A stretch of DNA of 64,000 nt from an uncultured Actinomycetes bacterium (GTDB lineage Bacteria; Actinomycetota; UBA4738; HRBIN12), in NCBI GenBank assembly GCA_963797635.1, contig CAWCPZ010000010.1, forward strand, positions 204,909 to 268,908, in the 5' to 3' direction. The stretch's first letter is position 1. Each line of letters opens with the position of its first letter. Of this stretch, positions 3,734-36,229 are shown one piece after another. The notes beneath the pieces were generated by a model. It made no database searches and was not told the DNA's origin. It worked only from the letters and a program-made list of their open reading frames with translations. A program made the position numbers and the translations under genes.

Positions 3734-5434
3734 ATGACCCGATACCTCTGCGTCGACCCGAGCCACACGCTGGGCGGTGAACCCGCTGCCATCGACCTGA
3801 CCGCCCAGGTCCGCCTCGAGCGCGAGTTCCTGCCGCGTGAATCCGCCTATCTCGCCGATTCCGGCGACGTGATCCGCCGGGTGAACGACCTCGGCGAGGT
3901 CGACGGCGCCCTGCGCGCGGCCGCCGTGCGCCGCATCCTCACCGGCACCACCACCCCGCTCGACGCGCCCGTGGTGTTGGTGGCCGGCGACCGGACCGAA
4001 CGCGTGCCCGGCCTCTACGAGATGGACGAACTCCGTCGCAGCGAGCGATCGGTGGCGTCCCTGCTCGATCGGTACGCCCAGACGAGCCTGGCCCGCGAAG
4101 GCTCGGAGGATCTCGTGGTGCTGCGCGATCAGCAGCCGCCCTTGCGACCGGACGGATCCACGGTGCAGCCCGGTCAAGGCCCCACCGTGCAGTCAGCACC
4201 CATCAGCCCCATGGTGGAGACGGTGTCGATCCCGGAGGTCCGGTCGGACGAGGCGATCGTGTTGCCGCAGGGCGTCTACCCCGTGCTCGAACTCGCGACG
4301 CGGCTCGCCGAAGCCGACGTCGAGACCGATTCGCTCGTCGACGTGATCCATGCCACGCCCTCGTACGGCTCGCTCGCCACCGAGGAGTCGCACCGTCCCT
4401 GGCGCGTGATCGTGGAGTGTCCCGTCGCCACCGGCGAACCGTTGACCCGTCACCAGATGATCTTCACGGGCACCGGCGAGACCGAACCCGTCGAGGTGCT
4501 CGGCACGCCCGCCGTCGGCAACGACGTGGTCCTGGACACCGCCGCCTCGAAGGAAGCGGTGATGCCGTTCCCGGCCCGGCGGGCCGAACGCGGTCTGCAG
4601 ATCGCATTGCTGGCTGCCGCGTTGATCGCGGCCGCCGTGCTCATCATCACCTGGATCTCCGGCGGGCTCGCGCTCGCGGTGCGGGAGACCCCCGTGTGGC
4701 TCGGCCTGTCGGTGACCCTGGGCGTCGCCGCGATGGCGGTGGGGTTGGTGGCGCTGGCGTCGCGGTCGGACGCCGAGGGCAACACCAACGACACGTTCGT
4801 GTTGCGCCGCCACTACGCGAGCCGCATCGACATGCTGTGGTACGCCACGCTGGCCACCGCCGTGCTGTTCTCCCTCTCGGTCGCCGCCGGCGTGATCCCG
4901 CCGATCCTGGCGTCCGAGACGCCGGTGCCGTCGGCGGCGATCACGTTCGACGCCGGCCGCGCGCTGGTGACGGCCACGGTGCAGGTCCAGACCCAGGGTC
5001 TGGCCACCGACCAACCGGTCACCGTCCAGATGCGTCAGTACAGCTCCGAGACGAGCAACGGCATCCTCATCGGTCTCGTCACCTCCACCGGCGATCCCTC
5101 CGGGGACACGGTGATCGGGGAGACGGTCTCGCTCGATGCCGGGGCTCGCTACATGAGCGTGCAGGTCATCATGGGCAACGATCCGGTGACGACGTGCACA
5201 CCGCTCGAAGCCGGCGGCCCAGGCTGCACCGTGGTGTCGGTGCCGCCGCTCGGCGCGGGCATCGTGCGGTTGGTGCCGGCCACCTCGGCGCTCGACGTGA
5301 TCGCGGCGACGGAGCCCACGACCAGCCCGGTCGTGCCGACGCCGTCCACCTCGGGCATCCCGACCCCGTCCGCCTCGGTGCCGACCTCGGCCGTCCCGAC
5401 GACGACGCTGAGCCCGTCCGCCTCGCCGTTCTAG
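3734..5434 (+). CDS. hypothetical membrane protein (cytoplasmic N-domain, 2 TM helices, extracytoplasmic domain, Pro/Thr/Ser-rich C-terminal tail)
   Basis: Single uninterrupted 566-aa ORF. Hydrophobic segments lie at about aa 290-340. The C-terminus is TTSPVVPTPSTSGIPTPSASVPTSAVPTTTLSPSASPF. No recognisable catalytic motif. Confidence 0.5.
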   Translation: MTRYLCVDPSHTLGGEPAAIDLTAQVRLEREFLPRESAYLADSGDVIRRVNDLGEVDGALRAAAVRRILTGTTTPLDAPVVLVAGDRTERVPGLYEMDELRRSERSVASLLDRYAQTSLAREGSEDLVVLRDQQPPLRPDGSTVQPGQGPTVQSAPISPMVETVSIPEVRSDEAIVLPQGVYPVLELATRLAEADVETDSLVDVIHATPSYGSLATEESHRPWRVIVECPVATGEPLTRHQMIFTGTGETEPVEVLGTPAVGNDVVLDTAASKEAVMPFPARRAERGLQIALLAAALIAAAVLIITWISGGLALAVRETPVWLGLSVTLGVAAMAVGLVALASRSDAEGNTNDTFVLRRHYASRIDMLWYATLATAVLFSLSVAAGVIPPILASETPVPSAAITFDAGRALVTATVQVQTQGLATDQPVTVQMRQYSSETSNGILIGLVTSTGDPSGDTVIGETVSLDAGARYMSVQVIMGNDPVTTCTPLEAGGPGCTVVSVPPLGAGIVRLVPATSALDVIAATEPTTSPVVPTPSTSGIPTPSASVPTSAVPTTTLSPSASPF

Positions 5435-10020: not shown

Positions 10021-10944
10021 TCAGTACCGGGCGCCTTCGGCGACGGGCAGCGCGTCCAGATCGGCCAGGTCCTCGGGTGAGAGCACGAGGTCGCCGGCGG
10101 CCAGGTTCTCCTCCAGGTAGCGCCGACGCTTCGTGCCGGGGATCGGCAGCACGTGCTCGCCCTGGGCCAACGTCCACGCGAGCGCGACCTGCGCGGGCGT
10201 GGCGCCCACGCGTTCGGCCACCTCGCGAACCCGCGCCACGATGGCCTGGTTCGCGTCGACCGCCTCGGCGGTGAAGCGCGGATTGTTCGACCGGAAGTCG
10301 GACTCGTCGAAGCTCGCCGCCGAGATCGCCCCCGTGAGGAACCCGCGCCCCAGCGGGGAGAACGGCACGAACCGGGCGCCGTGCTCGGCGCACCAGGGCA
10401 CGATGTCCGCGAGCGGATCGCGCGTCCACAGGCTCATCTCCGATTGGATCGCCGCGACCGGATGGATCGCGTGCGCCCGTTCGGCCTCCGCGACCGTGAC
10501 CTCCGAGAGCCCGAGGGCTCGCACCTTGCCGGCGCCGACGAGTTCGGCCATCGCGCCCCAGGTCTCTTCGACGGGGACGTTCGGATCGATGCGGTGGAGG
10601 TAGTAGAGGTCGACCACATCGGTGCGCAGCCGTCGGAGGGAAGCGTCGATCGCCGACCGCACGTGTTGAGGGCTCGCGTCGCGGTCGAGCGGGTAGCCGC
10701 CGTTCGGTCCCACGAGCAGGCCCACCTTGGTGGCCACCTCCACGCGGTCGCGGCGGTCGTGGATGGCCGCGCCGACGAGCTCCTCGTTGGAGAACGGGCC
10801 GTACACATCGGCGGTGTCGAGCATCGGGGCACCCAGGTCGATGGCGCGGTGGATCACGTCGACCGGGTCATCGTCGGCCTCGGCATCGACGTAGCCGAAG
10901 CTCATCGGCATGCACCCCAGCCCGATCCTGGCGGTTCCTCCCAT
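10021..10944 (-). CDS. aldo/keto reductase
   Basis: 307 aa with AKR signatures (DTADVYG, ...LYYLHRID..., GLSEV..., IPGTKRRRYLEEN). Confidence 0.9.
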   Translation of the reverse strand: MGGTARIGLGCMPMSFGYVDAEADDDPVDVIHRAIDLGAPMLDTADVYGPFSNEELVGAAIHDRRDRVEVATKVGLLVGPNGGYPLDRDASPQHVRSAIDASLRRLRTDVVDLYYLHRIDPNVPVEETWGAMAELVGAGKVRALGLSEVTVAEAERAHAIHPVAAIQSEMSLWTRDPLADIVPWCAEHGARFVPFSPLGRGFLTGAISAASFDESDFRSNNPRFTAEAVDANQAIVARVREVAERVGATPAQVALAWTLAQGEHVLPIPGTKRRRYLEENLAAGDLVLSPEDLADLDALPVAEGARY

Positions 10945-11093
10945 GCATGCACCCTATCGCCGCCTCCACGAAGCGCCGCTGTAGTCCGGTCGGGGGGACC
11001 CCGTCCGGCCCAACGCGACTCGGCCCATCGGCCTTGGGGTTTGGGCTGTGCGCCCGATGTGTGCCGGTGTCCTCCGATGGGAAGGTCGACACG

Positions 11094-12179
11094 ATGGTCT
11101 TGGGTGAGGGGGAGCCGGTCGTTGACGTCGTTCGCGGCGTCGTGTCGCTGCCCGACCTGCCCGCTCCCGCCCTCACCGATCATCTCCCCGAAGGCCCCTC
11201 ATGGCGCTATGAACCGGACTGGGACGGACTGCGCGTCGTGGTGCACCGGCGTGCGGGGCACACCGTGTTGGTGTCCGACCGGGGGAAGGCGATGGACCGC
11301 TACTTCCCCGAGGTGGTGCGGCACGCGTCACGCCTTCCCCTCGACTGCACGGTGCGCGGTTCGATCGTGGTGGTTCGGCGGTCCGGGTTCTCCTTCGATC
11401 GTCTGCGGTTGCGGATCCACCCCTCGGAGGCGCGGGTCGCCGAACTCACCGAGCGCTGGCCCGCCACGCTCGTGCTGACCGACCTGCTGTCGCGCGACAC
11501 CTGGGATCTGCGGCCGTGCGACCTCTCGGCGCGGCGCTTGCTGCTGGTCTCGATCGCGGAGGATTCGGACATCCCCGCGGCCTCGGCCGACCTCGGCCAG
11601 CTGGCAGCCGGCACGCCGGTCGTCGTGACGCCGCACACGCCGTTCGTCAGTTTCGCGATCCGGTGGCTCGAGGACCGGGACGAATCCGGGCGCGACGGCG
11701 TGATCGCGCGAGCGATGGACGGGGTCACGATGGTGCGGGTGCCCAGGCTCCGAACGGCGACCTGCGTGGTGACCGGGATCCGGCGCGAAGGCTCCGGCCC
11801 GCCGCACGCCTTGCGCCTGGGGCTCTACGACGGCGATGCCCTGGTCGACGTGGGGCGGACCACGTCGCTCCGTGGGTCGAGGGAGCGGCGCGGAGCGGCG
11901 CTCGCGCTCGCAGGTCTCGAGCGTGACACCCGGGCCGTGAACGGATGGATCGACGTCCGCCCCGAGATGGCCTGCGAGGTGACGTTCGCACGGCTGCGCG
12001 GGCGACGGTTCCGATCGGCGGCGCGGTTCATGCGGTGGCTGCCGGCGATGGATCCGCAACGATGCACGCTGCAGCAGTTCGACGCGATGGCACCGCCTCC
12101 GCCGGCAGCCCGCCGACGATCACGACGTGATCCGCCTCGACGTCTGAGGCTCGCCGTCAGCGCACCACCTTCGTGTTGA
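11094..12179 (+). CDS. ATP-dependent DNA ligase (LigC-like) homolog lacking the catalytic lysines (predicted inactive)
   Basis: Start at the ATG 11094 (MVLGEGEP...). It aligns along its full length to the LigC-type adenylation and OB domains. Motif I reads YEPDWDGLR (D where the adenylated K should be), motif III reads DCTVRGSIVVV (not DGExV), motif IV reads DGVIAR (K to R), and motif V reads MVRVPR (KxK to RxP). The C-terminal ...FRSAARFMRWLPAMDPQRCT is retained. Confidence 0.7.
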   Translation: MVLGEGEPVVDVVRGVVSLPDLPAPALTDHLPEGPSWRYEPDWDGLRVVVHRRAGHTVLVSDRGKAMDRYFPEVVRHASRLPLDCTVRGSIVVVRRSGFSFDRLRLRIHPSEARVAELTERWPATLVLTDLLSRDTWDLRPCDLSARRLLLVSIAEDSDIPAASADLGQLAAGTPVVVTPHTPFVSFAIRWLEDRDESGRDGVIARAMDGVTMVRVPRLRTATCVVTGIRREGSGPPHALRLGLYDGDALVDVGRTTSLRGSRERRGAALALAGLERDTRAVNGWIDVRPEMACEVTFARLRGRRFRSAARFMRWLPAMDPQRCTLQQFDAMAPPPPAARRRSRRDPPRRLRLAVSAPPSC

Positions 12180-12835
12180 ACATCGCGGTGTCCAACGCGC
12201 CCAACTCGCGGAGCCAGATCAGGAGATGAGCCTCCATGGCGCGAGCCGCGGTGATGTCGCCCAGATCGAGGATGTCCCGCCACCCGAAGGACTCCAGGAT
12301 CGCGGTGACCTCGGCCTTGGCGTCGGCGTCGTTGCCGCACAGCGGGATCGTGTGGTCGCCGCCGGCGAGGGCGCCCGGGTCGGTCATCAGCGCCGCCGTC
12401 ATCGTGTTCCACACCTTCACGAATCGAGCCTGCGGGAAGGGCGGCCTGCAACCGTTCGCCGAGCGAATCGGTGTTGGCGACGAACAAGCTGGGCGGCCAA
12501 CCCGACGCGTGGTCGATCGGGTTGGACGCGTCGAGCACGATCGTCCCGGTGAGGTGCTCGCCCCCGGCGCTCAGCGCGGCCTCGGAGCCTTCACCGTCGG
12601 TGGCGTTCACGACGATCTCGCCGTGGGCCATCGCGTCGGCCTGGGTCGTGAGCCCGATCTCCGGGTGCTCCGCCTTCCACTGCGCGAACGGTGGGTTCCC
12701 CATGGCGTCGCCCTCGGTGCGCGCCATCAACGCCTCGACGTCGCGCGTCCCGATCACGACGTCATGGCCTTTCTGGGTGAAGCCCTGCGCCAAGGTCCGT
12801 CCGACGGTTCCCGTGCCCACGATGCCGACCTGCAT
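12157..12835 (-). CDS. NADPH-dependent F420 reductase-like NAD(P)-binding oxidoreductase; frameshifted near 12425
   Basis: The N-terminal part (MQVGIVGTGTVGRTLAQGFTQKGHDVVIGTRD...) and the C-terminal part (MKVWNTMTAALMTDPGALAGGDHTIPLCGNDADAKAEV...) are in adjacent frames. Deleting one C in CTTCCCGCA restores ...QAALPQARFVKVWNTM. Confidence 0.65.
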
Positions 12836-12959
12836 CTGCCGCTCCCTTCGTCGTGGCACCATCTTGGGACATGCCCCACGTTCCGACTCCCGGGCCCGTC
12901 GCGCACCTGTCGTGGATCGAGGGGTGACCTTCCCGCCCGTCTCGCGCTACGGTTCACCC

Positions 12960-13370
12960 ATGACGGCGAAAGGAAGCGGCACGCCGGAAGACCCGTGGGT
13001 GTTGCAGACGCCCAGCCTCCAGTCGGAGTACCTGATGGCTCGGGCGCCGGACGCGGATCCGCCGGCGCTGATCTGCACGGTCGGCAAGACCGAACTGCGC
13101 TATCACCTGCGGGCGATCGAGGACCTGCACGCGATGTTGGTGGCCCACGGCGACTGGATGCCGCTGGGCAACGCCGACGAGCAGAAGCCCGCGAAGGACG
13201 GCACGGTCGAAGCATGGGCTCGCTCGACCGACAACCCGGTGGGCGGGTGGTACGGATTGAAGAAAGGGTTGCGCGGGCGCTTCGGCAACTACGTGCCGCC
13301 GGTGCTCGAGGTGCTGGGTCTCGCCGAGGTGGAGCACAACCCCCGCAACAACCGGATGCGCGCTATCTGA
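12960..13370 (+). CDS. conserved actinobacterial hypothetical protein
   Basis: Start at ATG 12960 (MTAKGSGTPEDPWVLQTPSLQSEYLMARAPDADPPALI...NPVGGWYGLKKGLRGRFGNYVPPVLEVLGLAEVEHNPRNNRMRAI). The upstream part of track ORF 12471..13370 is antisense to the reductase gene. Confidence 0.55.
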   Translation: MTAKGSGTPEDPWVLQTPSLQSEYLMARAPDADPPALICTVGKTELRYHLRAIEDLHAMLVAHGDWMPLGNADEQKPAKDGTVEAWARSTDNPVGGWYGLKKGLRGRFGNYVPPVLEVLGLAEVEHNPRNNRMRAI

Positions 13371-14301: not shown

Positions 14302-14787
14302 TCACGCCCGGCGGCCGGCGTCGAGGAACCCGTCGTGGTCGTCGCCCAGCAGGAACCGTGGCCCGCTGCCGTTGACGCTCGCGGCGTCCTCGGGGTTGTA
14401 CAGGCGGCAGGTGGCGAGCGACAGGCAGCCGCAGCCGATGCAGCTGGTGAGGTCGTCGCGCAGCGCCTCGAGGTCGGCGATGCGTTCGTCAAGCCCGCGT
14501 CGCCAGGTGCGGGAGAGCTTGGCCCATTGCGCCTTCGTCGGGGCTCGGTCGGGCGGCAGCGTGGCGAGCGCCCCGGCGACATCGTCCAGGGAGAGCCCCA
14601 CACGTTGCGCCGCACGGATGAACGCGAGGCGCCGCAGCGTGTGTCGCGCGAACGCCCGCTGGTTGCCCGGCGTCCTCGTGGACGTGACCAATCCCTCGGC
14701 TTCGTAGAAGCGGATCGCCGAGGTGGCGAGGCCGCTCCGTTCCGCGACCTCACCGATCGCCAGCAGGTCGTCGCGGCCCTTCGTCAT
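14302..14787 (-). CDS. soxR: redox-sensitive transcriptional activator SoxR (MerR family, [2Fe-2S])
   Basis: Start at ATG 14787 (MTKGRDDLLAIGEVAERSGLATSAIRFYEAEGL...), with RBS GGAGGTG. Contains a MerR HTH and the SoxR-specific cluster motif CIGCGCLSLATC. Confidence 0.85.
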   Translation of the reverse strand: MTKGRDDLLAIGEVAERSGLATSAIRFYEAEGLVTSTRTPGNQRAFARHTLRRLAFIRAAQRVGLSLDDVAGALATLPPDRAPTKAQWAKLSRTWRRGLDERIADLEALRDDLTSCIGCGCLSLATCRLYNPEDAASVNGSGPRFLLGDDHDGFLDAGRRA

Positions 14788-14809
14788 CGCGGTCACCTCC
14801 GCGCGGGGC

Positions 14810-14840
14810 TTGACTTCAAGTGAACTTGAAGTTCTAGGGT
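14810..14840 (+). promoter_or_regulatory. SoxR-box promoter: TTGACT-(19 bp spacer containing the palindrome ACTTCAAGTGAACTTGAAGT)-TAGGGT
   Basis: The sequence is ttgacttcaagtgaacttgaagttctagggt. An 18/20 perfect inverted repeat sits between a -35 and a -10 hexamer with the 19-bp MerR-type spacer. It closely resembles the E. coli soxS operator CCTCAAGTTAACTTGAGG. It lies 9 nt upstream of the transketolase ATG and is divergent from soxR. Confidence 0.7.
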
Positions 14841-14848
14841 TCGTCGTC

Positions 14849-15538
14849 ATGGATACCACGACCGATCCCCTGACGCACGTGCGTGCGCTGATGGCGCGGG
14901 CCACCGGCGACGAGAAGCACGACGAGAGCACCACGTCGACCCTCGATGCCCTCTGGGTCCTCTACGACCGGGTCCTGCGCATCGATCCCGCGCATCCGGA
15001 CGCCGAGGATCGGGACCGGTTCATCCTGAGCAAGGGACATGGTCCCGCGTCGCTGTACGCGATCTTGGCGGCGAAGGGGTTCTTCCCGCCCGAGTGGCTC
15101 GACACGTTCCTCGATCACGACGGACGCCTCGGCTCGCACCCGGACCGCATGCAGGTGCCCGGCATCGAGGCTTCGACCGGCTCGCTCGGTCACGGGTTCC
15201 CGATGGCGGTGGGTGTGGCGCAGGCGTTGCGGGCGAAGGGCCGCCCGGACACCCGGGTGGTCGTCCTCACGGGTGATGCCGAGCTCAACGAGGGCTCCAA
15301 CTGGGAAGCCGTGATGCTGGCGCCCAACCTCCGCTTGGGCAACCTCACCTGGCTCATCGTCGACAACCACAGCTCCTCGTGGCCGATGGGACCGTGGGAC
15401 GCCTGGCTGCCCCCGTTCGGATGGGACGTGCGCGTCGTCGACGGTCACGATCACGACGCACTGGCGGCGGCGCTCGGGGTTCGTCACGCGGAACAGCCGG
15501 TGGCGGTCGTCGCGGACATCCCGGAGGGGGAGTGGTGA
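14849..15538 (+). CDS. transketolase, N-terminal (TPP-binding) subunit of a split transketolase
   Basis: Start at ATG 14849 (MDTTTDPLTHVRAL...). Contains ...RFILSKGHGPASLYA..., GSLGHGFPMAVG and GDAELNEGSNWEA. Its stop overlaps the next start (TGATG). Confidence 0.85.
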   Translation: MDTTTDPLTHVRALMARATGDEKHDESTTSTLDALWVLYDRVLRIDPAHPDAEDRDRFILSKGHGPASLYAILAAKGFFPPEWLDTFLDHDGRLGSHPDRMQVPGIEASTGSLGHGFPMAVGVAQALRAKGRPDTRVVVLTGDAELNEGSNWEAVMLAPNLRLGNLTWLIVDNHSSSWPMGPWDAWLPPFGWDVRVVDGHDHDALAAALGVRHAEQPVAVVADIPEGEW

Positions 15539-16415
15539 TGGCCGCCATGCGTGAGGCGTTCGCCGCCACGGCCACCGACCTGCTCGAAGCCGACGAGCGG
15601 GTGGCCATCGTGCTCGCCGACATCAGCGAGACCCTGCTGAGCGCGCGCGATCCGGCACGATCCCCTTCGCGCCGTCAACGTGGGGATCGCCGAGCAGACC
15701 ATGGTGGGCGTCGCGGCCGGGTTCGCCATGGAGGGGTTCCATCCGATCGCGCATTCGCTGTCGCCGTTCATGGCCGAGCGCCCCTACGAGCAATTGAAAC
15801 TCGACTTCGGCTATCAGGGCCTCGGCGGGACCTTCGTGGGCTCGGGCGGCTCCTACGACTACGCCGGAGAAGGCGCGACCCATCATTCGCCGGCGGACGC
15901 GTCGCTGATGCTCGCGATCCCGCGCATGCAGGTGCTGGTGCCGGGTCACGGACGTGAGGTGGACCAACTGCTTCGGGCGGTGGTGGCGAACGGCGAGCCC
16001 ACCTACGTGCGCACGAGCCTGGCGACGAACGACGAACCCCACGACGTGGCACCCGGCCGGCTCGAGGTGATCCGTCGCGGCGACGGACCCACGGTGGTGG
16101 CGTTCGGGCCCGATGCTCACGCGCGCGCTGGAGGCGACCGCCCACCTGGACGCCACGGTGGTGTACGCCACGAGCCTCGAGCCGTTCGACGGTGCGACGC
16201 TCCGCGAGCTCGCCGGAGACGCCCCCGACGTCGTGGTCGTCGAGCCCTGGTACGAGGGCACCGCGGCCGCCGTGATCACGGCCGTGTTCGCCGATGTGGC
16301 GGTTCGCCTGCGGTCCATCGGGGTTCCACGCCGGTTCATCCATCGCTACGGCACGTGGCAGGAGCTCGACGCCTCCTTGGGCATGGACGCCACGGGTATC
16401 CGAGCACGCCTGTGA
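15538..16415 (+). CDS. transketolase, C-terminal (pyrimidine-binding) subunit; two apparent +1 frameshifts (about 15665 and 16112)
   Basis: Three consecutive frames carry MAAMREAFAATATDLLEADERVAIVLADISETLL / VNVGIAEQTMVGVAAGFAMEGFHPIAHSL...PTVVAFGP / MLTRALEATAHLDATVVYATSLEPFDGATL...IGVPRRFIHRYGTWQEL. Deleting one C at each junction (tcccc, gggccc) restores a continuous transketolase C-terminal protein. Confidence 0.7.
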
Positions 16416-16472
16416 CGCAAGCGATCCGGTGACCCTCTCAGGTCGCCGGAGCGGGGCGTCGATGCTCCAAGC

Positions 16473-18515
16473 ATGCAGGAAGCGCAGCGTTCGACCGATG
16501 CCCTCGTGGACCCGGCCCAGCTGTTCGCGGCCGGTCCCGAGGCGCTGCTCGTCGTGCGCGAAGGCCGGATCGCCTGCGCGAACGAACGCGCACTCGATCT
16601 GGTCGGGCGCCCGATCGCCGGTCTCGACCTCCACGAGGTGATCCCCGATTGGCGCGCGGCACCCGACGATGCCGTGCCGTTCGAGGCGATGCTCCGCTGT
16701 GCGGACGGCGAACTCGCGATCGAGGTGCGCGTCCGCGAGCTCGAGGACGGGGTCACGGTGGCGTCGCTGCGAGACGCCCGCGCGCTGATCGCCGGTCGCG
16801 AGGCCGAAGCCGCGCTCGCCGATGCGGAGGAGCGCTATCGCGGCCTCGTGGAACAGATCCCCGCCGTGGTCTACGCCGACGACGGCAACGTCACCACCTA
16901 CGTCAATCCGCAGATCGAGCACATCCTGGGCGTCACGCCGCAGGCCTATCGGGACGATCCGAACATGTGGCTGCGCATGGTGCATCCGGACGACCGGGAG
17001 ACGGTCGAGTCGCAGAGCCAGGCGTTCATCGACGGCGTCGGGGGCGATCTCGCCGACTACCGGATGATCCGTCCCGACGGCGGGATCGTCTGGGTGCGCG
17101 ACCGCGCCTACGCCCACCGCGATGACGACGGCCGCGTGCTGTGGGAGCACGGCATCCTGTTCGACGTCACCGAGCTGAAGGAAGCCGAAGCGCGGATCGC
17201 GCACATGGCGTTCCACGACGGCCTCACCGGGCTCGCCAACCGGGAGCTCTTCGAAGAGACGCTGGCGCTCGCCGTGCAGCGCGCGAAGCGCGACGGGACG
17301 GTGGTCGCCGTCCTGTACCTGGACCTGGACAACTTCAAGCTGGTGAACGACTCGCTCGGCCACCATGCGGGCGACCGGCTGTTGATCCAGCTCGCCGACC
17401 GGCTCAGCGCCTGCACGCGCGACACCGACCTGGTGGCGCGGCAGGGCGGCGACGAGTTCCTCATGCTGCTCGCCGACCTCGGCCACGCCGACTACGTCGA
17501 GGCGATCCGGGCCGTCACCGACCGCGTGTACGAGGCGATGGCCGCGCCGTTCGACCTGGAGGGCACGGAGTTCTTCGCGCGGGGCTCCATCGGCATCAGC
17601 GTGCATCCCCACGACGCGCACGACGTCGAGACCCTGATGCGCAACGCCGACGTCGCGATGTACCGCGCGAAGCGGCTCGATCCCGGCGGCCACGCCTTCT
17701 TCGCCGCCGATGCCGACGACGCGCAGGACCGGTTGTCGTTCGCCACCCGCCTCCGGCAGGCGGTCGAGGACGAGAGCTGGTTGTTGCACTACCAACCGGT
17801 CATCGATCTCGCCGACCGGCGCATCGTGGGCGCCGAGGCGCTGATCCGCTGGGACGACGTCGCGGCCGGCATCGTCCCGCCCGGGGAGTTCATCCCCGTG
17901 GCGGAGGAACTCGGCCTGATCGAAGCGATCGGTGACTGGGTGGTGGACGAGGTCGCGCGGCAGCAACGTCGATGGATCGATGCCGGGCTCCACCTGGAGG
18001 TCTCGTTCAACCTGTCGCCGCGGCAGATGTGGACGCCTCGCCTCGGCGAACGGCTGATCGGCAAGCTCCACGACGCGGGGGTCGACCCTTCGTGCATGCA
18101 GGCCGAGATCACCGAGACCAGCGCGATGGCCGACCCCGAACGGACCCAGCGCATCCTGCGCGAGCTCCACGGGTGCGGTCTCCGGCTCGCGCTCGACGAC
18201 TTCGGCACCGGGTACTCCTCGCTCGCCCGTCTGAAGCACATGCCGGTCGACGTGTTGAAGATCGACCGCGAGTTCGTGCGGCACGTCGACAAGGACGTCC
18301 GATTGGCGGGGATGGTGCGAGCGATGATCCAGGTGGCCCAGAGCCTGGACATGGTGCCGCTCGCCGAAGGCGTCGAGACCGAAGGCGAGTACATCTTCCT
18401 GCGGTCGAACGGCTGTCGCCTGGCGCAGGGTTTCTGGTTCGCCCACCCGATGGCGGCCCGTGACTTCGAGCGGCTGGCCACCTCGGGCGAACCCCTCGGC
18501 CCGTCCACGATCTGA
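16473..18515 (+). CDS. PAS-PAS-GGDEF-EAL diguanylate cyclase/phosphodiesterase
   Basis: 680 aa. GGDEF motif: RQGGDEFLML. EAL motif: EALIRW..., DDFGTGYSSL. Two N-terminal PAS-like segments. Confidence 0.9.
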   Translation: MQEAQRSTDALVDPAQLFAAGPEALLVVREGRIACANERALDLVGRPIAGLDLHEVIPDWRAAPDDAVPFEAMLRCADGELAIEVRVRELEDGVTVASLRDARALIAGREAEAALADAEERYRGLVEQIPAVVYADDGNVTTYVNPQIEHILGVTPQAYRDDPNMWLRMVHPDDRETVESQSQAFIDGVGGDLADYRMIRPDGGIVWVRDRAYAHRDDDGRVLWEHGILFDVTELKEAEARIAHMAFHDGLTGLANRELFEETLALAVQRAKRDGTVVAVLYLDLDNFKLVNDSLGHHAGDRLLIQLADRLSACTRDTDLVARQGGDEFLMLLADLGHADYVEAIRAVTDRVYEAMAAPFDLEGTEFFARGSIGISVHPHDAHDVETLMRNADVAMYRAKRLDPGGHAFFAADADDAQDRLSFATRLRQAVEDESWLLHYQPVIDLADRRIVGAEALIRWDDVAAGIVPPGEFIPVAEELGLIEAIGDWVVDEVARQQRRWIDAGLHLEVSFNLSPRQMWTPRLGERLIGKLHDAGVDPSCMQAEITETSAMADPERTQRILRELHGCGLRLALDDFGTGYSSLARLKHMPVDVLKIDREFVRHVDKDVRLAGMVRAMIQVAQSLDMVPLAEGVETEGEYIFLRSNGCRLAQGFWFAHPMAARDFERLATSGEPLGPSTI

Positions 18516-19043: not shown

Positions 19044-19751
19044 ATGACCGAGCGGGAACGGGGCCCTTCCATCTCGAGCGAGACGGCGAGCGAAGGCCGT
19101 CACCGGATGCGCGATATGGACACGCACACCCGAACGGACCTGATCACGATCGCCGTCGGTGTCCTGGTGCTGGTGGGGTGCGCCCTGCTCGCACGCAACG
19201 ACCTCACCGACGCCGAGGTCTGGATCTTCCAGGCGGCCAACGAACTCCCGCAGGGCTACCACGCGTTCGTGTGGCCGTTCATGCAGTACGGCACGTTCAT
19301 CACGATCCCGGTCCTGGCGCTGATCGCGTTCGCGTTCCGGCGGTTCCGCCTGGGGTGGGCGTTGCTGCTGGCCGGCACGAGCGTCTACCTGCTGGCCCTG
19401 GTCGCGAAACAGGCCGTCGAACGCGGGCGCCCCGGATGGCTCCTCAAGGGGGTCGAGACGCGCGAACGGTTCGGCGCCGAGAGCCTCGGGTTCCCGTCGG
19501 GGCACGCGGCGGTGGCCGCTGCCCTCACCGTGGTGGTGGCGGTGCATCTGTCGAAACGCTGGGCGATCGCGGCGGTGATCTTGGCCTGCGTGGTCATGTT
19601 CGGGCGGATGTACGTGGGTGCTCACCTGCCGCTGGATCTGGTGGGCGGCGCCGCACTGGGAGCGATCGCGGGCGGCGTGGCGAACCTGCTCATCCCGCCG
19701 AGGCCCCGACAGCATCCTGAGGGAGCGAGCGAGCACCACCGCGAACCGTGA
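19044..19751 (+). CDS. phosphatase PAP2 family membrane protein
   Basis: Multi-TM protein with PAP2 motifs (KQAVERGRP ... PSGH ... SRMYVGAHLPLD). Confidence 0.75.
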   Translation: MTERERGPSISSETASEGRHRMRDMDTHTRTDLITIAVGVLVLVGCALLARNDLTDAEVWIFQAANELPQGYHAFVWPFMQYGTFITIPVLALIAFAFRRFRLGWALLLAGTSVYLLALVAKQAVERGRPGWLLKGVETRERFGAESLGFPSGHAAVAAALTVVVAVHLSKRWAIAAVILACVVMFGRMYVGAHLPLDLVGGAALGAIAGGVANLLIPPRPRQHPEGASEHHREP

Positions 19752-19797
19752 TGCTGACCCACTTCCGGTGGCGCCCCGATCGGGTCAGGATCGGCTC

Positions 19798-21876
19798 GTG
19801 GTGAACCGTCTGCAGGAGTCCTCGAGAGCCCGAACGATCGCGTGGGTCGTGGGGGTGGTATCGGTCGTCCTGATCGTGGCCTCCCTGATCATCATGTACC
19901 TCGATCGAGGGGTCCCGTTGCCCGAGGACGTCACCACGGGAGACCTCAGCTACGGCTTGGACGTGCTGGTGAACATCTTCGTCCCGGTCATCGGCGTCGT
20001 GCTCGCGACGCGCCGTCCCAGCAGTCCGATCGGGTGGATGTTCCTGCTGGCGGGGTTCTTCCTCGGCCTGGGCAGCTTCACGCAGCAGTACGCCATCCGA
20101 GGCCTGATCGTCGAACCCGGCTCCCTGCCGCTGGTCTACGGCGTCGCCTGGGTGGCGAACTGGTCGTGGGCGATCCCGATCGGGGTGTTGCCGTTGCTGT
20201 TCCTGCTGTTCCCCGACGGTCGCCTGCCGTCGGAGCGGTGGCGATGGGTGGCATGGTTCGACGCCGTCGTCATCGCCGCCCTCACCGTGGGGGCGATGAT
20301 CCTGGCGGCGCTCGAGTGGAGTACCCCGTTCTCCGCCGATCCGGGCGAGGCCTCCGGCTCCTTGAGCGCCGCCGCGATCGTCACGTTCGGTATCAGCTTC
20401 CTCCTGATCCTGGTGTGCCTGCCCGTGTCGTTCGTGGGTCTCGTGACGCGGTTCCGACATTCACGCGGCGAGGAGCGGCTCCAACTCAAGTGGTTCGTCA
20501 CCGCGGCCGCGTTCGTCGCGGCATCGTTCGCGGTGACCGGCATCTTCGACGGCGCCGAGCTCCTCTCGACCTTCTCGCTGCTCTTCCTCTACGCATCGAT
20601 CGCGATCGCGGTGTTGAAGTACCGGCTGTACGACATCGATGTCGTGATCGGCAGGGCCGTGGTGTTCGCGGTGCTGGCGGCATTCATCACGATCGTCTAC
20701 ATCGGGCTCGTCGTCGGCGTCGGCACGCTGGTCGGCAACGATCGGAGTCCACTGCTCTCCGCGGTGGCCGCCGCGGTGGTGGCCGTGGCCTTCCAACCGG
20801 TGCGTGAACGCGCGCGACGGCTGGCCAACCGCGTGGTCTACGGCAAGCGCGCGACCCCGTACGAAGTGCTCGCCGGCTTCGCCGAGCGTGCGAGCGAGAC
20901 CTACTCCACCGACGACGTGCTGCCGCGGCTGGTCCGTGTGTTGGCCGAAGGGATCGGCGCCGAGCGTGCCACCGTGTGGCTGGCCGTGGGTTCGGAGCTC
21001 CGGCCCGCGTCGTCCTGGCCCGACGGCGCGACGGCCTCGCCGGTCCTTCGCCGGAGCGGTTCCGATCAGGACCTCCCGGCGTTCCCCGACCGGGAGCGGG
21101 CGTTCCCCGTCCGTCACGGCGGCGAACTGCTTGGCGCGATCAGCGTCGTGACGCCGCCGACCGAACCGCTGGGACCCGATCGTGAGCGTCTGGTGTCCGA
21201 CGTCGCCGCGCAGACCGGGTTGGTGCTGCGCAACGTGCGGCTGATCGAGGACCTTCGCGAGTCGCGCCGCCGCATCGTCGCCACGCAGGATGTTCGGGCG
21301 AAGGCGTTGGAGCGGAACATCCACGACGGTGCGCAGCAACAACTGGTGGCGCTGGCGGTGAAGCAGCGTCTCGCGGAGTCCCTGGTGGATCGCGATCCGG
21401 CGCAGGCCAAGTCGATGCTGGCCGACATCCAGGCCGAGACCCACGACGCGCTCGAGAACCTGCGAGACCTGGCCCGCGGGATCTATCCGCCGTTGCTGGC
21501 CGACCAAGGGCTCGCGGCAGCGTTGCAGGCCCAAGCTCGCAAGTCGGTGGTGCCGGTCGATGTCCATGCCGACGGGATCGGCCGATGTTCCCAGGAGGTC
21601 GAGTCGGCGGTGTACTTCTCCTGCCTGGAAGCGATGCAGAACGTGGCCAAGTACGCGAACGCCTCGCACGTGACGATCGACCTCGAGGAGTCGGGTGGCT
21701 CGCTGCGGTTCACGGTGGTGGACGACGGGATCGGCTTCGACCTCGGCGCGACGTCCTACGGCACCGGCCTCCAGGGGATGGCCGACCGTCTCGACGCCAT
21801 CAGTGGCTCGCTCGAGGTTCGCAGCGCCCCGGGCGGCGGGACGACGATCGAAGGCATGGTGCCGCTCGGCGCCTGA
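19798..21876 (+). CDS. sensor histidine kinase (multi-TM sensor, GAF domain, HisKA_3 + HATPase); no adjacent response regulator
   Basis: GTG start at 19798 after the PAP2 stop. Six or more TM helices, a GAF-like region (ATVWLAVGSELRP...HGGELLGAISVV), the H-box IHDGAQQQLVAL, and an ATPase region (VYFSCLEAMQNVAKYA...DDGIGF...GTGLQGMADRL). Confidence 0.8.
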   Translation: MVNRLQESSRARTIAWVVGVVSVVLIVASLIIMYLDRGVPLPEDVTTGDLSYGLDVLVNIFVPVIGVVLATRRPSSPIGWMFLLAGFFLGLGSFTQQYAIRGLIVEPGSLPLVYGVAWVANWSWAIPIGVLPLLFLLFPDGRLPSERWRWVAWFDAVVIAALTVGAMILAALEWSTPFSADPGEASGSLSAAAIVTFGISFLLILVCLPVSFVGLVTRFRHSRGEERLQLKWFVTAAAFVAASFAVTGIFDGAELLSTFSLLFLYASIAIAVLKYRLYDIDVVIGRAVVFAVLAAFITIVYIGLVVGVGTLVGNDRSPLLSAVAAAVVAVAFQPVRERARRLANRVVYGKRATPYEVLAGFAERASETYSTDDVLPRLVRVLAEGIGAERATVWLAVGSELRPASSWPDGATASPVLRRSGSDQDLPAFPDRERAFPVRHGGELLGAISVVTPPTEPLGPDRERLVSDVAAQTGLVLRNVRLIEDLRESRRRIVATQDVRAKALERNIHDGAQQQLVALAVKQRLAESLVDRDPAQAKSMLADIQAETHDALENLRDLARGIYPPLLADQGLAAALQAQARKSVVPVDVHADGIGRCSQEVESAVYFSCLEAMQNVAKYANASHVTIDLEESGGSLRFTVVDDGIGFDLGATSYGTGLQGMADRLDAISGSLEVRSAPGGGTTIEGMVPLGA

Positions 21877-27133: not shown

Positions 27134-28327
27134 ATGACGCCGGGCGCCCGGCGGACCGTTACCGTCCAGGTCGTGGAACGACGCACGTGGTGGGAGCGCC
27201 TGCGCGGGATCAACCCGCTGGTGGTGGACGGGCTCCTCGCCGCGACGATCCTGGGGCTCTCCCTCTTCGCAGCGACCCTCGGTCCCGAGCCGGTCGACCG
27301 CCGCGATCCCGACGCCTTCGCGTTCCTCCTGATCGTTCTCGGATGCGTGCCGCTCATGTTCCGCCGTCGGGCCGCTCTGCCGGTGCTGTGGATCGTGTGC
27401 GCATCGGCGATCGCCTATGCAGCGTTCGGCTACCCGGACAACCTGGTCGTGTCGCTGGTGCTGGCGACCTACACCGCCGCCTCGCTTGAACCGCGTGAGC
27501 GGGTCCGCACCCTCGTGGCACCGGTCGCGCTGGTGGCCGGGATCGCGGCGCAGCTCGCCGCGCAGACCGGCTTCAACTGGCTCGAGGTCGTGGGCGGCGT
27601 GACCTTCTCGGTGGCGATCCCCATCGCCGTCGGTCGCGCGGTCTTCAACCGTCGGCGGCGCCTGCGCGAGGATCGGGAACGGATGGCCCACGATGCCGTC
27701 GTGCAGGAACGGGCCCGCATCGCCCGTGAGCTGCACGACGTCGTCGCGCACGCGATGAGCGTGATGATCGTCCAGGCCGGAGCCGCCAGGACCGTGGTCG
27801 AGCGCGATCCCGGTGAGGCAGCGCGGGCCCTTCGTCGGATCGAAGACACCGGCCGGTTCGGCATGGCCGAGATGCGCCGGCTGATCGGGGTGTTGAAAGC
27901 CGGAGATGAGGAAGCCGAGCTGATGCCCCAGCCGGGACTCGCACAGCTCGACCAGCTGCTCGAGACCGTTCGGAGCGCCGGCTTGCCCGTCGAGGCCGTG
28001 ACCGAGGGCACACCCCGGCCGCTGCCTCCCGGTGTCGAGCTCACCGCCTACCGCGTCGTGCAGGAGGGATTGACGAACGTGCTGAAGCACGCCGGCGGTG
28101 CGCATGCCCGCGCCACGGTGCGCTACGAGGAGGACGCGATCGCGGTGGAGGTGGCCGACGACGGTCGCGGGGCGGTCGTCGACCCGAACGGCACGCCCGG
28201 CCACGGCCTGCTCGGCATGCGCGAGCGGGTCGCGGTGTTCGACGGCACGCTCGAGACCGGCGCCAGAGCGGGCGGCGGCTTCGTGCTGCGCGCCCGGATC
28301 CCGCTGGACGCCGAGGTGGATGGATGA
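27134..28327 (+). CDS. sensor histidine kinase (HisKA_3/NarL-type partner)
   Basis: N-terminal TM helices, H-box ([23 protein letters not shown]) and ATPase region ([13 protein letters not shown]...DDGRG...[11 protein letters not shown]). Confidence 0.8.
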
Positions 28328-28980
28328 GCACCACGGTGTTGATCGCGGACGACCAGGCCCTGATGCGGGGTGGGTTCCGCATGATCATCGACGCCGAACC
28401 CGATCTCGAGGTGGTGGGCGAGGCGATCGACGGCGCCGACGCCGTGCGGGGGTTCGAGCGGCTGCGGCCGAACGTGGTCGTGATGGACGTACGGATGCCC
28501 ACGATGGACGGGATCGAAGCCACCAGGCGCATCACCGACGCGGAGCCCGACGCGAAGATCCTGATCCTCACGACGTTCGATCTGGACGAGTACGTGTTCC
28601 AGGCGCTGCGTGCGGGTGCGAGCGGGTTCCTGCTGAAGGACCGTCCGCCCGAGGAACTGGTGGAGGCGATCCGGATCGTGGCGAGCGGCGACGCGCTGTT
28701 GGCTCCATCGATCACCAGGAGGCTCATCGAGGAGTTCTCCCGGCGACCCGTGGCGCCCGCTCCACCCGCCGAGCTGGCCGAGCTCACCGACCGCGAACGG
28801 GAGGTGCTGGTGCTGATGGCGCGAGGACTGTCGAACGCCGAGATCGCCGCCCAGCTCTTCGTCGCCGAGACCACGGTGAAGACCCACGTGGGCCGGGTGT
28901 TGCACAAGCTCCGGTTGCGTGACCGCGCGCAGGCCGTCGTCCTGGCGTACGAATCCGGCCTGGTCCAACCGGGCGCGTAG
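28324..28980 (+). CDS. response regulator, LuxR/NarL family
   Basis: REC domain ([14 protein letters not shown]...VMDVRMP) plus C-terminal LuxR HTH ([36 protein letters not shown]). Translationally coupled to the kinase. Confidence 0.9.
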
Positions 28981-34534: not shown

Positions 34535-36187
34535 TCAACGTTGATCGTCGTGGGTGGCGCTGACCGAGAGCAACTCGAAGGCTTCGGTCGGCTCACGCTT
34601 GCCCTTCAGGTCGGCCAGCCCCATCGGCCGCACGTCGACGATCACGTCGGGCTCGGTGTTGACCTCGTCCAGGGTCCGGCCGGCGATCGTGATGTGGCCC
34701 GGGGTCGAGAGGGTCTGCAGACGGGCGGCGACGTTGGTCGTGTCGCCGATCACCGAGAACGACCGTTGCGACCCGGCGCCCACGTTGCCGATCACGGCCA
34801 CCCCCGTGTTCACGCCGACACGGAACCGCGGCCAGTCCTCGGACGCGCGCACCTCCGTGGAACGGTCGCGGATCGCGATCGCCGCCCGCACCGCTCTCGC
34901 CGCATGGTCGGGCTGGTCGCCGAGCGCGTTGAACACCGCGAGCACGGCGTCGCCGGCGAACCGTTCGATCAATCCGCCCTCCTCGTCGACGACGAACGGC
35001 ACCACGACACCCCAGTACGCGTTCAACATCTCGATCACCTCTGCCGCCGGCCGGTCCTCGGAGAACGTGGTGAACCCGGAGAGATCCGCGAACAACACGG
35101 TGACCTCCTGCTCCTGCCCGCCCAGCTGCGCGAGCTCGGGTTCGGCGTCGAGACGGTCGGCCAGGTGCGGGCTGACGTACTGGCGCAGCAGCCGGTCCAT
35201 CCGCGCGAGCTCGCGCGCCGAGTCCGTCATGACGGCCACCTGGTCGCCGGTGAACCCTTGCTGACGGAGTTCCTCGCCGGTGCTGCCGAGGGTCCCCGAG
35301 GCGTCGGCACGCACGAGCTCGGCGAGCGCGGCCGATTGCCGATGGTCGAGCCGCTCCAAGGTGCGTTCCAGGTAGATGCCGCCGAAGGTTCCCGACGCGG
35401 TGCGCGCATGGCGGTACTCGTGCCGGGCAGCGAGCACGATCGTGGCGAACGCGATCGCCATCAGCACGTGCCACTCCCACCACGATGCCTGCCACGCGCG
35501 CCCGAACGCCATGGCGATCAGGGCCTCGGCGAGGAACACGAACGCCACCGCGACGGCCAGCGGAAGGGGGCGGCGGCGTGTGCGATAGATCCGCAGGTAC
35601 CGCCACGCCGCGAACAGGTAGGCCGCCACGGCGAACGGCAGCAGGACCAGCAGCCACGGCGCGCGTTCGGACTCGATCACGCGATCGAGCGGTCCGAACC
35701 CGGCCACCGAGGCCGTCGCCCACACGATCAACACGACGACCAGGCCCACGCGCATCGGCGCCTGCAGCCGACGCAGCGTCGCCTCGGTGCGCTCGTCCAT
35801 CTCGATCGCGGAGAGCGCCGCGAACCCCGCGGCCAGGATGAGTCCGGCGGGGGTGGCCAGCACGAACCCGCCGTTCGGCCCGTCGAGCACCACGCCGGGT
35901 GTGGCGAGCGCGTGCAACGCCAGGAACCCCGCGCTCGTGAGCAGCACCATCGACACCAGGAAGAGCCGTTCGTCGCCGCTCCGCCGCGCGACCTCGCTCA
36001 CGATCAGGCCGAGGGCCACGTTGAGCAGGGCGACGCCGAACACGAGCCAGAAGTGCGATGGATGGTGCTCCCAATGCACGTCGAGCGACGGGAACCCCAG
36101 CATCAGGGCCAGTCCCGCGAGCGGGACGATCAGTGCGGCCGCGAGGAACCAGGGTGAGGGCCCCGCGGTGCGGGACGCGTGTTCCAT
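34535..36187 (-). CDS. membrane-anchored class III adenylate/guanylate cyclase
   Basis: N-terminal 6-TM domain followed by a cyclase homology domain (VTVLFADLSGFTTFSE...RFAGDAVLAVF...VGVNTGVAVIGNVGA...SVIGDTTNVAARL). Same strand as, and immediately downstream of, the HK at 36230. Confidence 0.8.
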   Translation of the reverse strand: MEHASRTAGPSPWFLAAALIVPLAGLALMLGFPSLDVHWEHHPSHFWLVFGVALLNVALGLIVSEVARRSGDERLFLVSMVLLTSAGFLALHALATPGVVLDGPNGGFVLATPAGLILAAGFAALSAIEMDERTEATLRRLQAPMRVGLVVVLIVWATASVAGFGPLDRVIESERAPWLLVLLPFAVAAYLFAAWRYLRIYRTRRRPLPLAVAVAFVFLAEALIAMAFGRAWQASWWEWHVLMAIAFATIVLAARHEYRHARTASGTFGGIYLERTLERLDHRQSAALAELVRADASGTLGSTGEELRQQGFTGDQVAVMTDSARELARMDRLLRQYVSPHLADRLDAEPELAQLGGQEQEVTVLFADLSGFTTFSEDRPAAEVIEMLNAYWGVVVPFVVDEEGGLIERFAGDAVLAVFNALGDQPDHAARAVRAAIAIRDRSTEVRASEDWPRFRVGVNTGVAVIGNVGAGSQRSFSVIGDTTNVAARLQTLSTPGHITIAGRTLDEVNTEPDVIVDVRPMGLADLKGKREPTEAFELLSVSATHDDQR

Positions 36188-36229
36188 CGAGCCATCATGC
36201 AGGGTCGTCGCGGTCGTCCGCATCGCCCA

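Follow-up and report, generated by a model that had tools for sequence, protein, structure and literature searches.

Few enzymes that act on nucleic acids are understood as well as the ATP-dependent DNA ligases, whose nucleophilic lysine is regarded as defining. In bacteria, the closest described systems are the stand-alone ligase LigC (LigC1 MSMEG_6302, Rv3731; NF006078), of which LigC1 acts as the main scaffold in a complex for base excision repair (PMC5663958), and the ligase domain of Mycobacterium tuberculosis LigD, in which the contact residues K481, E479, R486, E530, E613, K618, K635 and K637 have been described (PMC8656161). A further point of reference is eukaryotic Lig4, whose engineered, catalytically dead K273 mutants support end joining structurally (PMC9638927, PMC11754673, PMC10858965). 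The gene described here lies in a 64-kb stretch of DNA from an uncultured Actinomycetes bacterium; this whole stretch is called the window, and the coordinates are window positions. Its product resembles LigC from end to end and belongs to a clade in which the catalytic lysines have been replaced, for which reason it is referred to below as a pseudo-ligase.

Replacement of the catalytic residues in a LigC-like protein

A preliminary description of the window, made from its letters, had claimed a LigC-like architecture of adenylation and OB domains with the C-terminal motif kept, and this was borne out by the alignments and the predicted fold. The family scores are mixed. The adenylation-domain family PF01068 is matched at E=3.8e-10 (40.2 bits against a cut-off of 26.2), with only residues 34-160 covered, and the OB-domain family PF04679 reaches 15.7 bits, under its cut-off of 27.5; the best family is the NCBIfam LigC model NF006078, with 211.5 bits, under a cut-off of 296. 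The AlphaFold2 model of the window protein, built on 90 homologues, has a mean predicted local distance difference test (pLDDT) score of 88.7 and a predicted template-modelling (pTM) score of 0.83, and it shows the two-domain fold of LigC, an adenylation (nucleotidyltransferase) domain followed by an OB domain. When this model was compared with the PDB by Foldseek, the best 50 matches were ATP-dependent DNA ligases without exception (E down to 1.9e-21), including the M. tuberculosis LigD ligase domain (1vs0/6nhz), and the highest TM-scores (0.63-0.68) were those of DNA-bound human Lig1. In public records, members of the clade are labelled “ATP-dependent DNA ligase” or “hypothetical protein”. 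The gene is very probably a vertically inherited derivative of LigC.

The motifs were compared column by column between 44 clade members and 49 canonical LigC proteins. Where motif I should hold the lysine that accepts adenosine monophosphate (AMP), the window protein has Asp42 (codon GAC, 11217-11219); the position is aspartate in 44/44 clade members and lysine in 49/49 canonical proteins, and the KxDG signature reads D-W-D-G. The phmmer alignments with ligases of the PDB place YEPDWDGLRV opposite FEIKYDGARV and VRGSIV opposite VEGELV, and no alignment puts a lysine at motif I. The reading of Asp for Lys in the preliminary description is thereby upheld, as are the replacements that it had reported in motifs III, IV and V, all of which are seen in the comparison of 44 with 49 sequences. 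The phenylalanine following motif I has become leucine (F46->L) in the entire clade; in motif III, D88 is replaced by R, E or Q and E90 by serine (41/44); in motif IIIa, F129 is replaced by threonine (43/44); in motif IV, K206 is arginine in all 44; and in motif V, K215 is arginine in 44/44 and K217 in 38/44, with proline in the subclade of the window. All the catalytic lysines, together with the motif III glutamate and the motif IIIa phenylalanine, are invariant in the 49 canonical proteins.

Other elements of the ligase framework have been kept, namely Glu40 (invariant), Asp44-Gly45, Asp130, Asp201-Gly202, the R305-F306-R307 of motif VI (in 39, 43 and 44 of the 44 members, respectively) and the C-terminal RW.P..P..C(T), while Arg47 of motif I varies within the clade. 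There is an insertion of 12-13 residues after residue 158 and a deletion of six residues between motifs IV and V, which removes the canonical P-Y-x-P-G loop, and the OB-domain loop PG..GG.SRW of canonical LigC, with its near-invariant R and W, is shortened. The window protein is 31-36% identical to canonical LigC and at least 44% identical to the clade, with a sharp gap between the two.

No lysine is conserved anywhere in the clade: no alignment column holds more than three lysines among the 44 sequences and 13 of these have no lysine at all, and a relocated lysine nucleophile is therefore excluded. The sole near-invariant histidine, H109, is common to canonical LigC as well and has no known catalytic role. 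The net charge is higher than that of canonical LigC (+6.5 versus +3.0), and there are about eight clade-specific conserved arginines, with arginine at motifs IV and V and the RFR of motif VI kept. Since the motif I lysine is missing, there should be no lysyl-AMP intermediate and no classical three-step DNA sealing, and it is very probable that the protein can neither form lysyl-AMP nor seal DNA by that route.

Distribution, selection and conservation of the former active site

A homologue search returned 45 clusters (at 90% identity) with E<=2e-68 and identities of 44-95%, all of which carry (Y/F)EPDWDGL; the next homologues below them are ordinary LigC proteins, 31-36% identical, with the motif EPKWDGFR. 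The change from lysine to aspartate is thus common to all orthologues, in about 45 clusters, which agrees with the earlier claim that it is no miscall. In a profile search of 1.84 billion representatives at 50% identity, three full-length clade representatives and a few fragments were followed by scores typical of canonical LigC. Two isolated sequences among the next 146 matches have a motif I without lysine in an otherwise canonical context, P0139 (YEPAWEGCR, with Ala) and P0203 (YEPRWDGFR, with Arg); both lie outside the clade and the window, and their changes may be independent losses or errors. A scan of GTDB with one genome per species found the gene in 19 species, all of them represented by metagenome-assembled genomes of uncultured Actinomycetota, mostly from soil surveys. 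The clade is classed here as a pseudoenzyme branch of LigC and is confined to a small lineage of uncultured Actinomycetota.

Conservation was followed in a set of 24 loci, made up of the window and 23 further loci (L001-L023, each with 10 kb on either side). The open reading frame (ORF) of the pseudo-ligase is intact in 24/24, and the Nei-Gojobori ratio of non-synonymous to synonymous substitution (dN/dS) is 0.12-0.27 between close pairs, as compared with mostly 0.03-0.27 for flanking genes. The preliminary description had named decay of the orthologues as a sign against a conserved function, and the orthologues show instead intact frames and selection of the same order as their neighbours. 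As in pseudoenzymes, the residues indispensable for catalysis are gone and the gene is kept across species under purifying selection; by these measures it is conserved and selected, and it is neither decaying nor miscalled.

Conservation within the protein was evaluated after thinning the clade to 35 sequences less than 85% identical, over 305 core sites. Of the 20 positions of the former active site, 12 are invariant and 16 fall within the most conserved quarter, whereas the invariant share of core sites overall is 14%; the substituted residues themselves (D, L, S, T, R, R, R) are nearly invariant clade-wide. These substitutions are fixed and not drifting, which speaks for a pocket that still has a role, and the nucleotide pocket appears to have been remodelled, not abandoned. 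It could bind a phosphate-bearing ligand, possibly by means of a metal on Asp42, Asp44 and Asp201; alternatively, it could form an internal Asp-Arg network in place of the nucleotide. The window copy is typical of the clade, deviating at 5-9 of 95 clade-conserved positions. The idea that the subclade of the window is degenerating faster was considered and rejected: five of the 95 positions are changed in all three of its members and nine in any one, and among control subclades the most divergent has 5/92 changed and the other three have one or two.

The scarcity of lysine has to be seen against its genomic background. Across 253 neighbouring genes of the window and L001-L023, lysine makes up on average 1.1% of residues and arginine 8.7%, 15% of these genes are as lysine-poor as the pseudo-ligase, and several proteins of the lineage, of 270-570 residues, have no lysine at all. 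A special adaptation through freedom from lysine, whether against pupylation or against adduct formation, was accordingly discarded. A genome poor in lysine keeps its lysines where they are needed, and the loss from the pseudo-ligase therefore fits lost ligase chemistry.

Gene limits and upstream element

The coding sequence is enclosed by a + strand entry of the ORF list (10947..12179) and starts at the ATG at 11094 (MVLGEGEPVVDV...). The same start is used in the closest database relative (P0001), and its equivalent in 24/24 loci is the methionine preceding a conserved N-terminal peptide. This extension of approximately 25 residues is not present in canonical LigC and is modelled with low confidence (pLDDT 44-54); the clade proteins are small and soluble-looking. 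The preliminary description had called the frame intact up to 12179, which stands for the core (residues 1-337) but not for the end. Relative to the orthologues of L004-L006 (89-93% protein identity), the window has one extra base at 12104 and another at 12156, which put residues 338-361 out of frame; the end at 12179 is a product of this frameshift, whereas the ligase-like core is untouched. The orthologous tail (QPADDRDVIRLDV, then the stop) can be read in another frame of the window, its stop lying at 12145-12147. Comparison with the close relative L004, whose pseudo-ligase is 93% identical, shows further single-base insertions at 12437, 15640, 16112 and 1493; the first of these splits the F420-dependent NADP reductase-like gene, and those at 15640 and 16112 split the gene of the transketolase B subunit (about 15540-16430, +). 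The insertions in the window are either assembly errors or real recent mutation with pseudogenisation.

Directly upstream of the start codon, a strongly conserved non-coding element is present at 24/24 loci regardless of the upstream gene and despite protein identities of 45-50%. It consists of an invariant CCCGATG box, a spacer of 17-21 nt whose sequence varies, and a TGnNAnnnT motif; the combined motif occurs once per locus, at the pseudo-ligase gene only. A second, weaker conserved block was observed at about 10981-10999. A known or structured RNA was considered for this element and given up in favour of a promoter/operator: Rfam at permissive E-values returned chance matches to microRNAs and snoRNAs only and no family for the element, RNAalifold gave -2 kcal/mol with essentially no covariation and no consensus fold, and in a possible CATCGG/CCGATG stem the 5' strand changes without matching changes in the other. 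A simple sigma-70 scan of the element gave no match, as expected where a -35 element is missing. General knowledge of actinobacterial promoters is the basis for reading it as an extended -10 promoter of a leaderless mRNA. The element is probably such a promoter, with an operator for a regulator over the -35 region. Given that the element is conserved whatever the upstream gene and occurs only at this gene in each locus, the pseudo-ligase most likely forms a stand-alone, specifically regulated transcription unit.

Table 1. Features of the pseudo-ligase locus (window positions; rows that name a locus refer to that locus)
Feature	Position	Strand	Remark
566-aa membrane protein	3734..5434	+	No Pfam family; lineage-specific
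Aldo/keto reductase	10021-10944	-	Upstream neighbour in window
Conserved non-coding element	11024..11093	+	Directly 5' of start codon, ~70 nt
CCCGATG box	11053-11059	+	Invariant; part of the element
TGnNAnnnT (window TGgGAAGGT)	11078-11086	+	Ends 7 nt before the A of ATG
LigC-like pseudo-ligase, coding sequence	11094..12179	+	361 aa as read; conserved core, residues 1-337
Clade-specific N-terminal extension	11094..11168	+	Residues 1-25; consensus M..E.GE.VVDV..DVVS(L/I)P(D/E)
Motif I, YEPDWDGLR	11208..11234	+	Asp42 at position of AMP-accepting Lys
Motif III, TVRGSIV	11349..11369	+	Canonical V-D-G-E is V-R-G-S; ribose-contacting Glu is Ser
Motif IIIa, LVLTDLL	11469..11489	+	Adenine-stacking Phe is Thr
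Motif IV, DGVIAR	11694..11711	+	Lys is Arg
Motif V, MVRVPR	11730..11747	+	K-x-K is R-x-R in clade, R-x-P in window's subclade
Retained OB elements: motif VI (RRFRS) and C-terminal RWLPAMDPQRCT	12003..12068	+	
Frameshifted C-terminal tail	12104..12179	+	Residues 338-361 (last 24 codons), by comparison with L004-L006
F420-dependent NADP reductase-like gene	12157-12862	-	Downstream, convergent with pseudo-ligase
DUF6855 gene	12930-13370	+	
MerR/SoxR-type regulator	14302-14790	-	
Split two-subunit transketolase	14723-16430	+	
PAS-GGDEF-EAL protein	16473..18515	+	4.3 kb downstream in window
AlkZ-like gene, locus L003	11058-12170	-	
AlkZ-like gene, locus L007	10959-12425	-	
AlkZ-like gene, locus L023	Upstream of pseudo-ligase	+	

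Genomic neighbourhood

Across the lineage, the pseudo-ligase recurrently lies between the gene of a 566-aa membrane protein, on its upstream side, and a PAS-GGDEF-EAL gene, on its downstream side. The membrane protein gene is the commonest upstream neighbour; it immediately precedes the pseudo-ligase (95-241 bp, same strand) in 12 other loci and is 5.6 kb away in the window. The N-terminal part of its product is structured, membrane helices are predicted and the C-terminal domain is rich in beta structure; the product contains no lysine, as seen in the 96%-identical orthologue of L004. Its homologues are unannotated hypothetical proteins of metagenomes, nearly all from Actinomycetota where a source is named; searches against Pfam and PADLOC gave no family for it and the fold search was uninformative. 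In 17/24 loci the PAS-GGDEF-EAL gene is no more than 10 kb away, and in five it follows the pseudo-ligase immediately (79-371 bp, same strand). Since all the loci belong to one lineage, this order is read mainly as inherited synteny and does not by itself establish a partnership.

Genes of the AlkZ-like DNA glycosylase family (PF06224) adjoin the pseudo-ligase in two subclades, L003/L007/L020 and L023, on differing sides and in differing orientations; L003 and L007 each have a second AlkZ-like copy in the same locus. The remaining neighbours are heterogeneous. In the window and the 23 loci, no second ligase was found and tblastn returned no LigD-type Prim-Pol, while the Pfam content of the neighbours includes neither Ku nor an archaeo-eukaryotic primase (AEP), with the proviso that Ku was not searched by sequence in every locus. 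The association with Prim-PolC and Ku that is a trait of LigC is thus not seen over this range. PADLOC gave no defence-system matches, and membership of such a system was rejected on that account.

The rest of the window is occupied by signalling genes (sensor kinases and nucleotide cyclases) and hydrolases. The window is dense in signalling genes, and this set (16473-18515, 34535-36223, 57196-58446, 19618-21876, 27134-28980 and 36230-37318) consists of the PAS-GGDEF-EAL protein, two proteins with adenylate/guanylate cyclase domains, a GAF histidine kinase and two further two-component systems. The DUF6855 gene, the MerR/SoxR-type regulator and the split transketolase are likewise found close to the pseudo-ligase in a number of loci (L003, L004-L007, L016).

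Possible functions of the pseudo-ligase

The explanation favoured here, held with slightly less than even confidence, is that of a LigC derivative without ligation that binds DNA breaks, or another phosphate-bearing ligand, as a sensor or scaffold made from its own promoter. In this derivative, the two-domain ligase fold has been kept and the lysyl-AMP step lost, and the pocket has been rebuilt by exchanging the nucleophilic lysine for Asp, the ribose-contacting glutamate for Ser, the adenine-stacking phenylalanine for Thr and the three lysines that contact phosphate or adenine for Arg. The arginine-lined pocket and the OB domain would hold the phosphate-bearing ligand, most plausibly a nick, gap or end of DNA, and the protein would act as a break sensor, protector or recruiting scaffold, exploiting the scaffolding role already documented for mycobacterial LigC1, with the gene transcribed alone from its dedicated conserved promoter/operator. 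The narrower proposal that the protein clamps such a ligand, most likely a DNA strand break, and acts without ligating is put forward a little more tentatively. A DNA break is favoured because the fold and basic residues have been kept, the net charge is higher, LigC1 acts as a scaffold and dead Lig4 retains a structural role; the AlkZ-like genes adjoining the pseudo-ligase were also counted in its favour. Several observations weigh against it. An aspartate where the 5'-phosphate or AMP is normally contacted would repel phosphate unless bridged by a metal, the shortening of the PG..GG.SRW loop may alter the canonical mode of DNA binding, neither Ku nor Prim-Pol nor a second ligase was found in the window and the 23 loci (within 10 kb on either side), where no other repair gene occurs consistently, and the AlkZ-like family is multi-copy in its loci, where adjacency may be due to chance. 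The preliminary description had argued for a non-catalytic role, of which the predicted loss of ligase chemistry stands, while action without catalysis is an inference; the strict conservation suits a pocket rebuilt for a specific small ligand or for new catalysis at least as well.

That last point is the basis of the main rival, a new function centred on the pocket, in which the protein would bind a different ligand (a nucleotide or second messenger, for example cyclic di-GMP, c-di-GMP) or carry out a different chemistry; this is a serious possibility given the strict conservation of the pocket, if on the whole a doubtful one. The rebuilt pocket (Asp42, Asp44, Asp201, Ser90, Thr129, Arg206, Arg215, Arg217 and Arg307) contains three acidic and several arginine residues that suit metal and phosphate binding; conservation is highest in the former active site, where the substitutions are fixed, and the invariant Glu40 corresponds to a LigD residue that contacts adenine N6 (PMC8656161). 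On the other hand, of the residues that contact adenine and ribose, the Phe of motif IIIa and the Glu of motif III have been lost and Arg47 of motif I varies, and an Asp-based reaction has no precedent in the ligase fold. The frequent proximity of the PAS-GGDEF-EAL gene would fit a c-di-GMP ligand, but inherited gene order in one lineage explains this linkage too, and genes often intervene. One variant, a metal-dependent hydrolase acting on the 5'-adenylated DNA left by abortive ligation, is a possibility, and the more specific version, in which the redesigned working pocket serves either new DNA-end chemistry (5'-AMP removal) or a receptor signalling via the linked c-di-GMP enzyme, is unlikely. 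Less likely again is a partner or regulator of an active ligase or repair enzyme (LigC, LigD, LigA, glycosylases, nucleases or Prim-Pol), working by competition or allosteric activation and needing no ligand in the pocket. Such a role would be in line with the many base-excision-repair proteins bound by LigC1 (PMC5663958), with the common regulation of active paralogues by pseudoenzymes (PMC10211241) and with the conserved N-terminal peptide, which is modelled with low confidence and could be a docking motif, but it leaves the top conservation of the former active site unexplained and finds no consistently adjacent partner gene. Very improbable is a protein that is still a ligase by way of an unconventional nucleophile or a lysine from elsewhere. 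The fold, motif VI, Asp44-Gly45 and Asp201-Gly202 are those of a ligase, but lysine is conserved nowhere and wholly missing from 13/44 members, the one candidate histidine is shared with canonical LigC, and the motif III Glu, motif IIIa Phe and motif IV and V lysines have been replaced too; in M. tuberculosis LigD, the motif V mutation K637A abolishes nick sealing (PMC8656161). The least probable explanation, a decaying pseudogene or sequencing artefact, is effectively refuted: what it has in its favour are the extra single bases seen on comparison with a close relative, of which two fall in the 3' tail of the ORF and others frameshift neighbouring genes, and against it stand 337 uninterrupted core codons in the window and 23 other loci, the same substitutions in about 45 independent clusters from many samples, the dN/dS of 0.12-0.27 and a conserved promoter-like element.

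If the favoured explanation is true, the ligase scaffold lends itself to roles other than ligation, and the clade is a natural counterpart to the structural role of engineered dead Lig4 and to the scaffolding by LigC1. If the new-chemistry or receptor reading is true instead, the ATP-dependent DNA ligase scaffold would have its first natural role outside ligation. In practical terms, some clade records carry the label “ATP-dependent DNA ligase”, so that too many ligases are counted when repair capacity is tallied for soil Actinomycetota.

Comparison with known systems

Full-text searches of the open-access literature for a natural inactive DNA ligase turned up only the engineered Lig4 mutants and unrelated ubiquitin “pseudoligases”, and keyword searches of two reviews of bacterial ligase diversity (PMC7470946, PMC10140301) met no mention of such forms under the terms used. 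The earlier statement that no enzymatically dead ligase had been described is consistent with these searches. The clade shares with pseudoenzymes in general, such as pseudokinases, the condition of a conserved homologue without catalytic residues under purifying selection (PMC10211241), and it differs from them in that the searches of the open-access literature met no ATP-dependent DNA ligase described as a member of the class.

The resemblance to LigC lies in size (approximately 350 aa), in the restriction to adenylation and OB domains with no accessory domains, and in the LigC/LigD-type landmarks RYFPE, R(I/L)HP, motif VI RFR and RW.PD..P..C(T). The differences are that all four catalytic lysines have been replaced in the clade, together with the Glu of motif III and the Phe of motif IIIa, that the window protein scores under the cut-offs of NF006078 and PF04679 and is 31-36% identical to canonical LigC, and that the clade is extended at the N-terminus, carries an insertion and two deletions and does not lie beside Prim-PolC/Ku.

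The closest solved bacterial structure is the M. tuberculosis LigD ligase domain (1VS0, 6NHX, 6NHZ; Foldseek E about 1e-19, probability 1.0), although the window protein comes without the polymerase and phosphoesterase domains of LigD. Its contact residues can be followed one by one in the window protein: K481 corresponds to D42, E479 to E40 (kept), R486 to R47 (variable in the clade), E530 to S90, E613 to D201 (acid kept), K618 to R206, K635 to R215 and K637 to P217, which is R in most of the clade.

Dead Lig4 provides a functional parallel, that of a ligase body without its lysine that is still useful in repair by holding ends or complexes. There, however, the protein is a eukaryotic laboratory point mutant with an otherwise intact pocket, whereas here it is a natural bacterial family in which the whole pocket has been rewritten and kept under selection.

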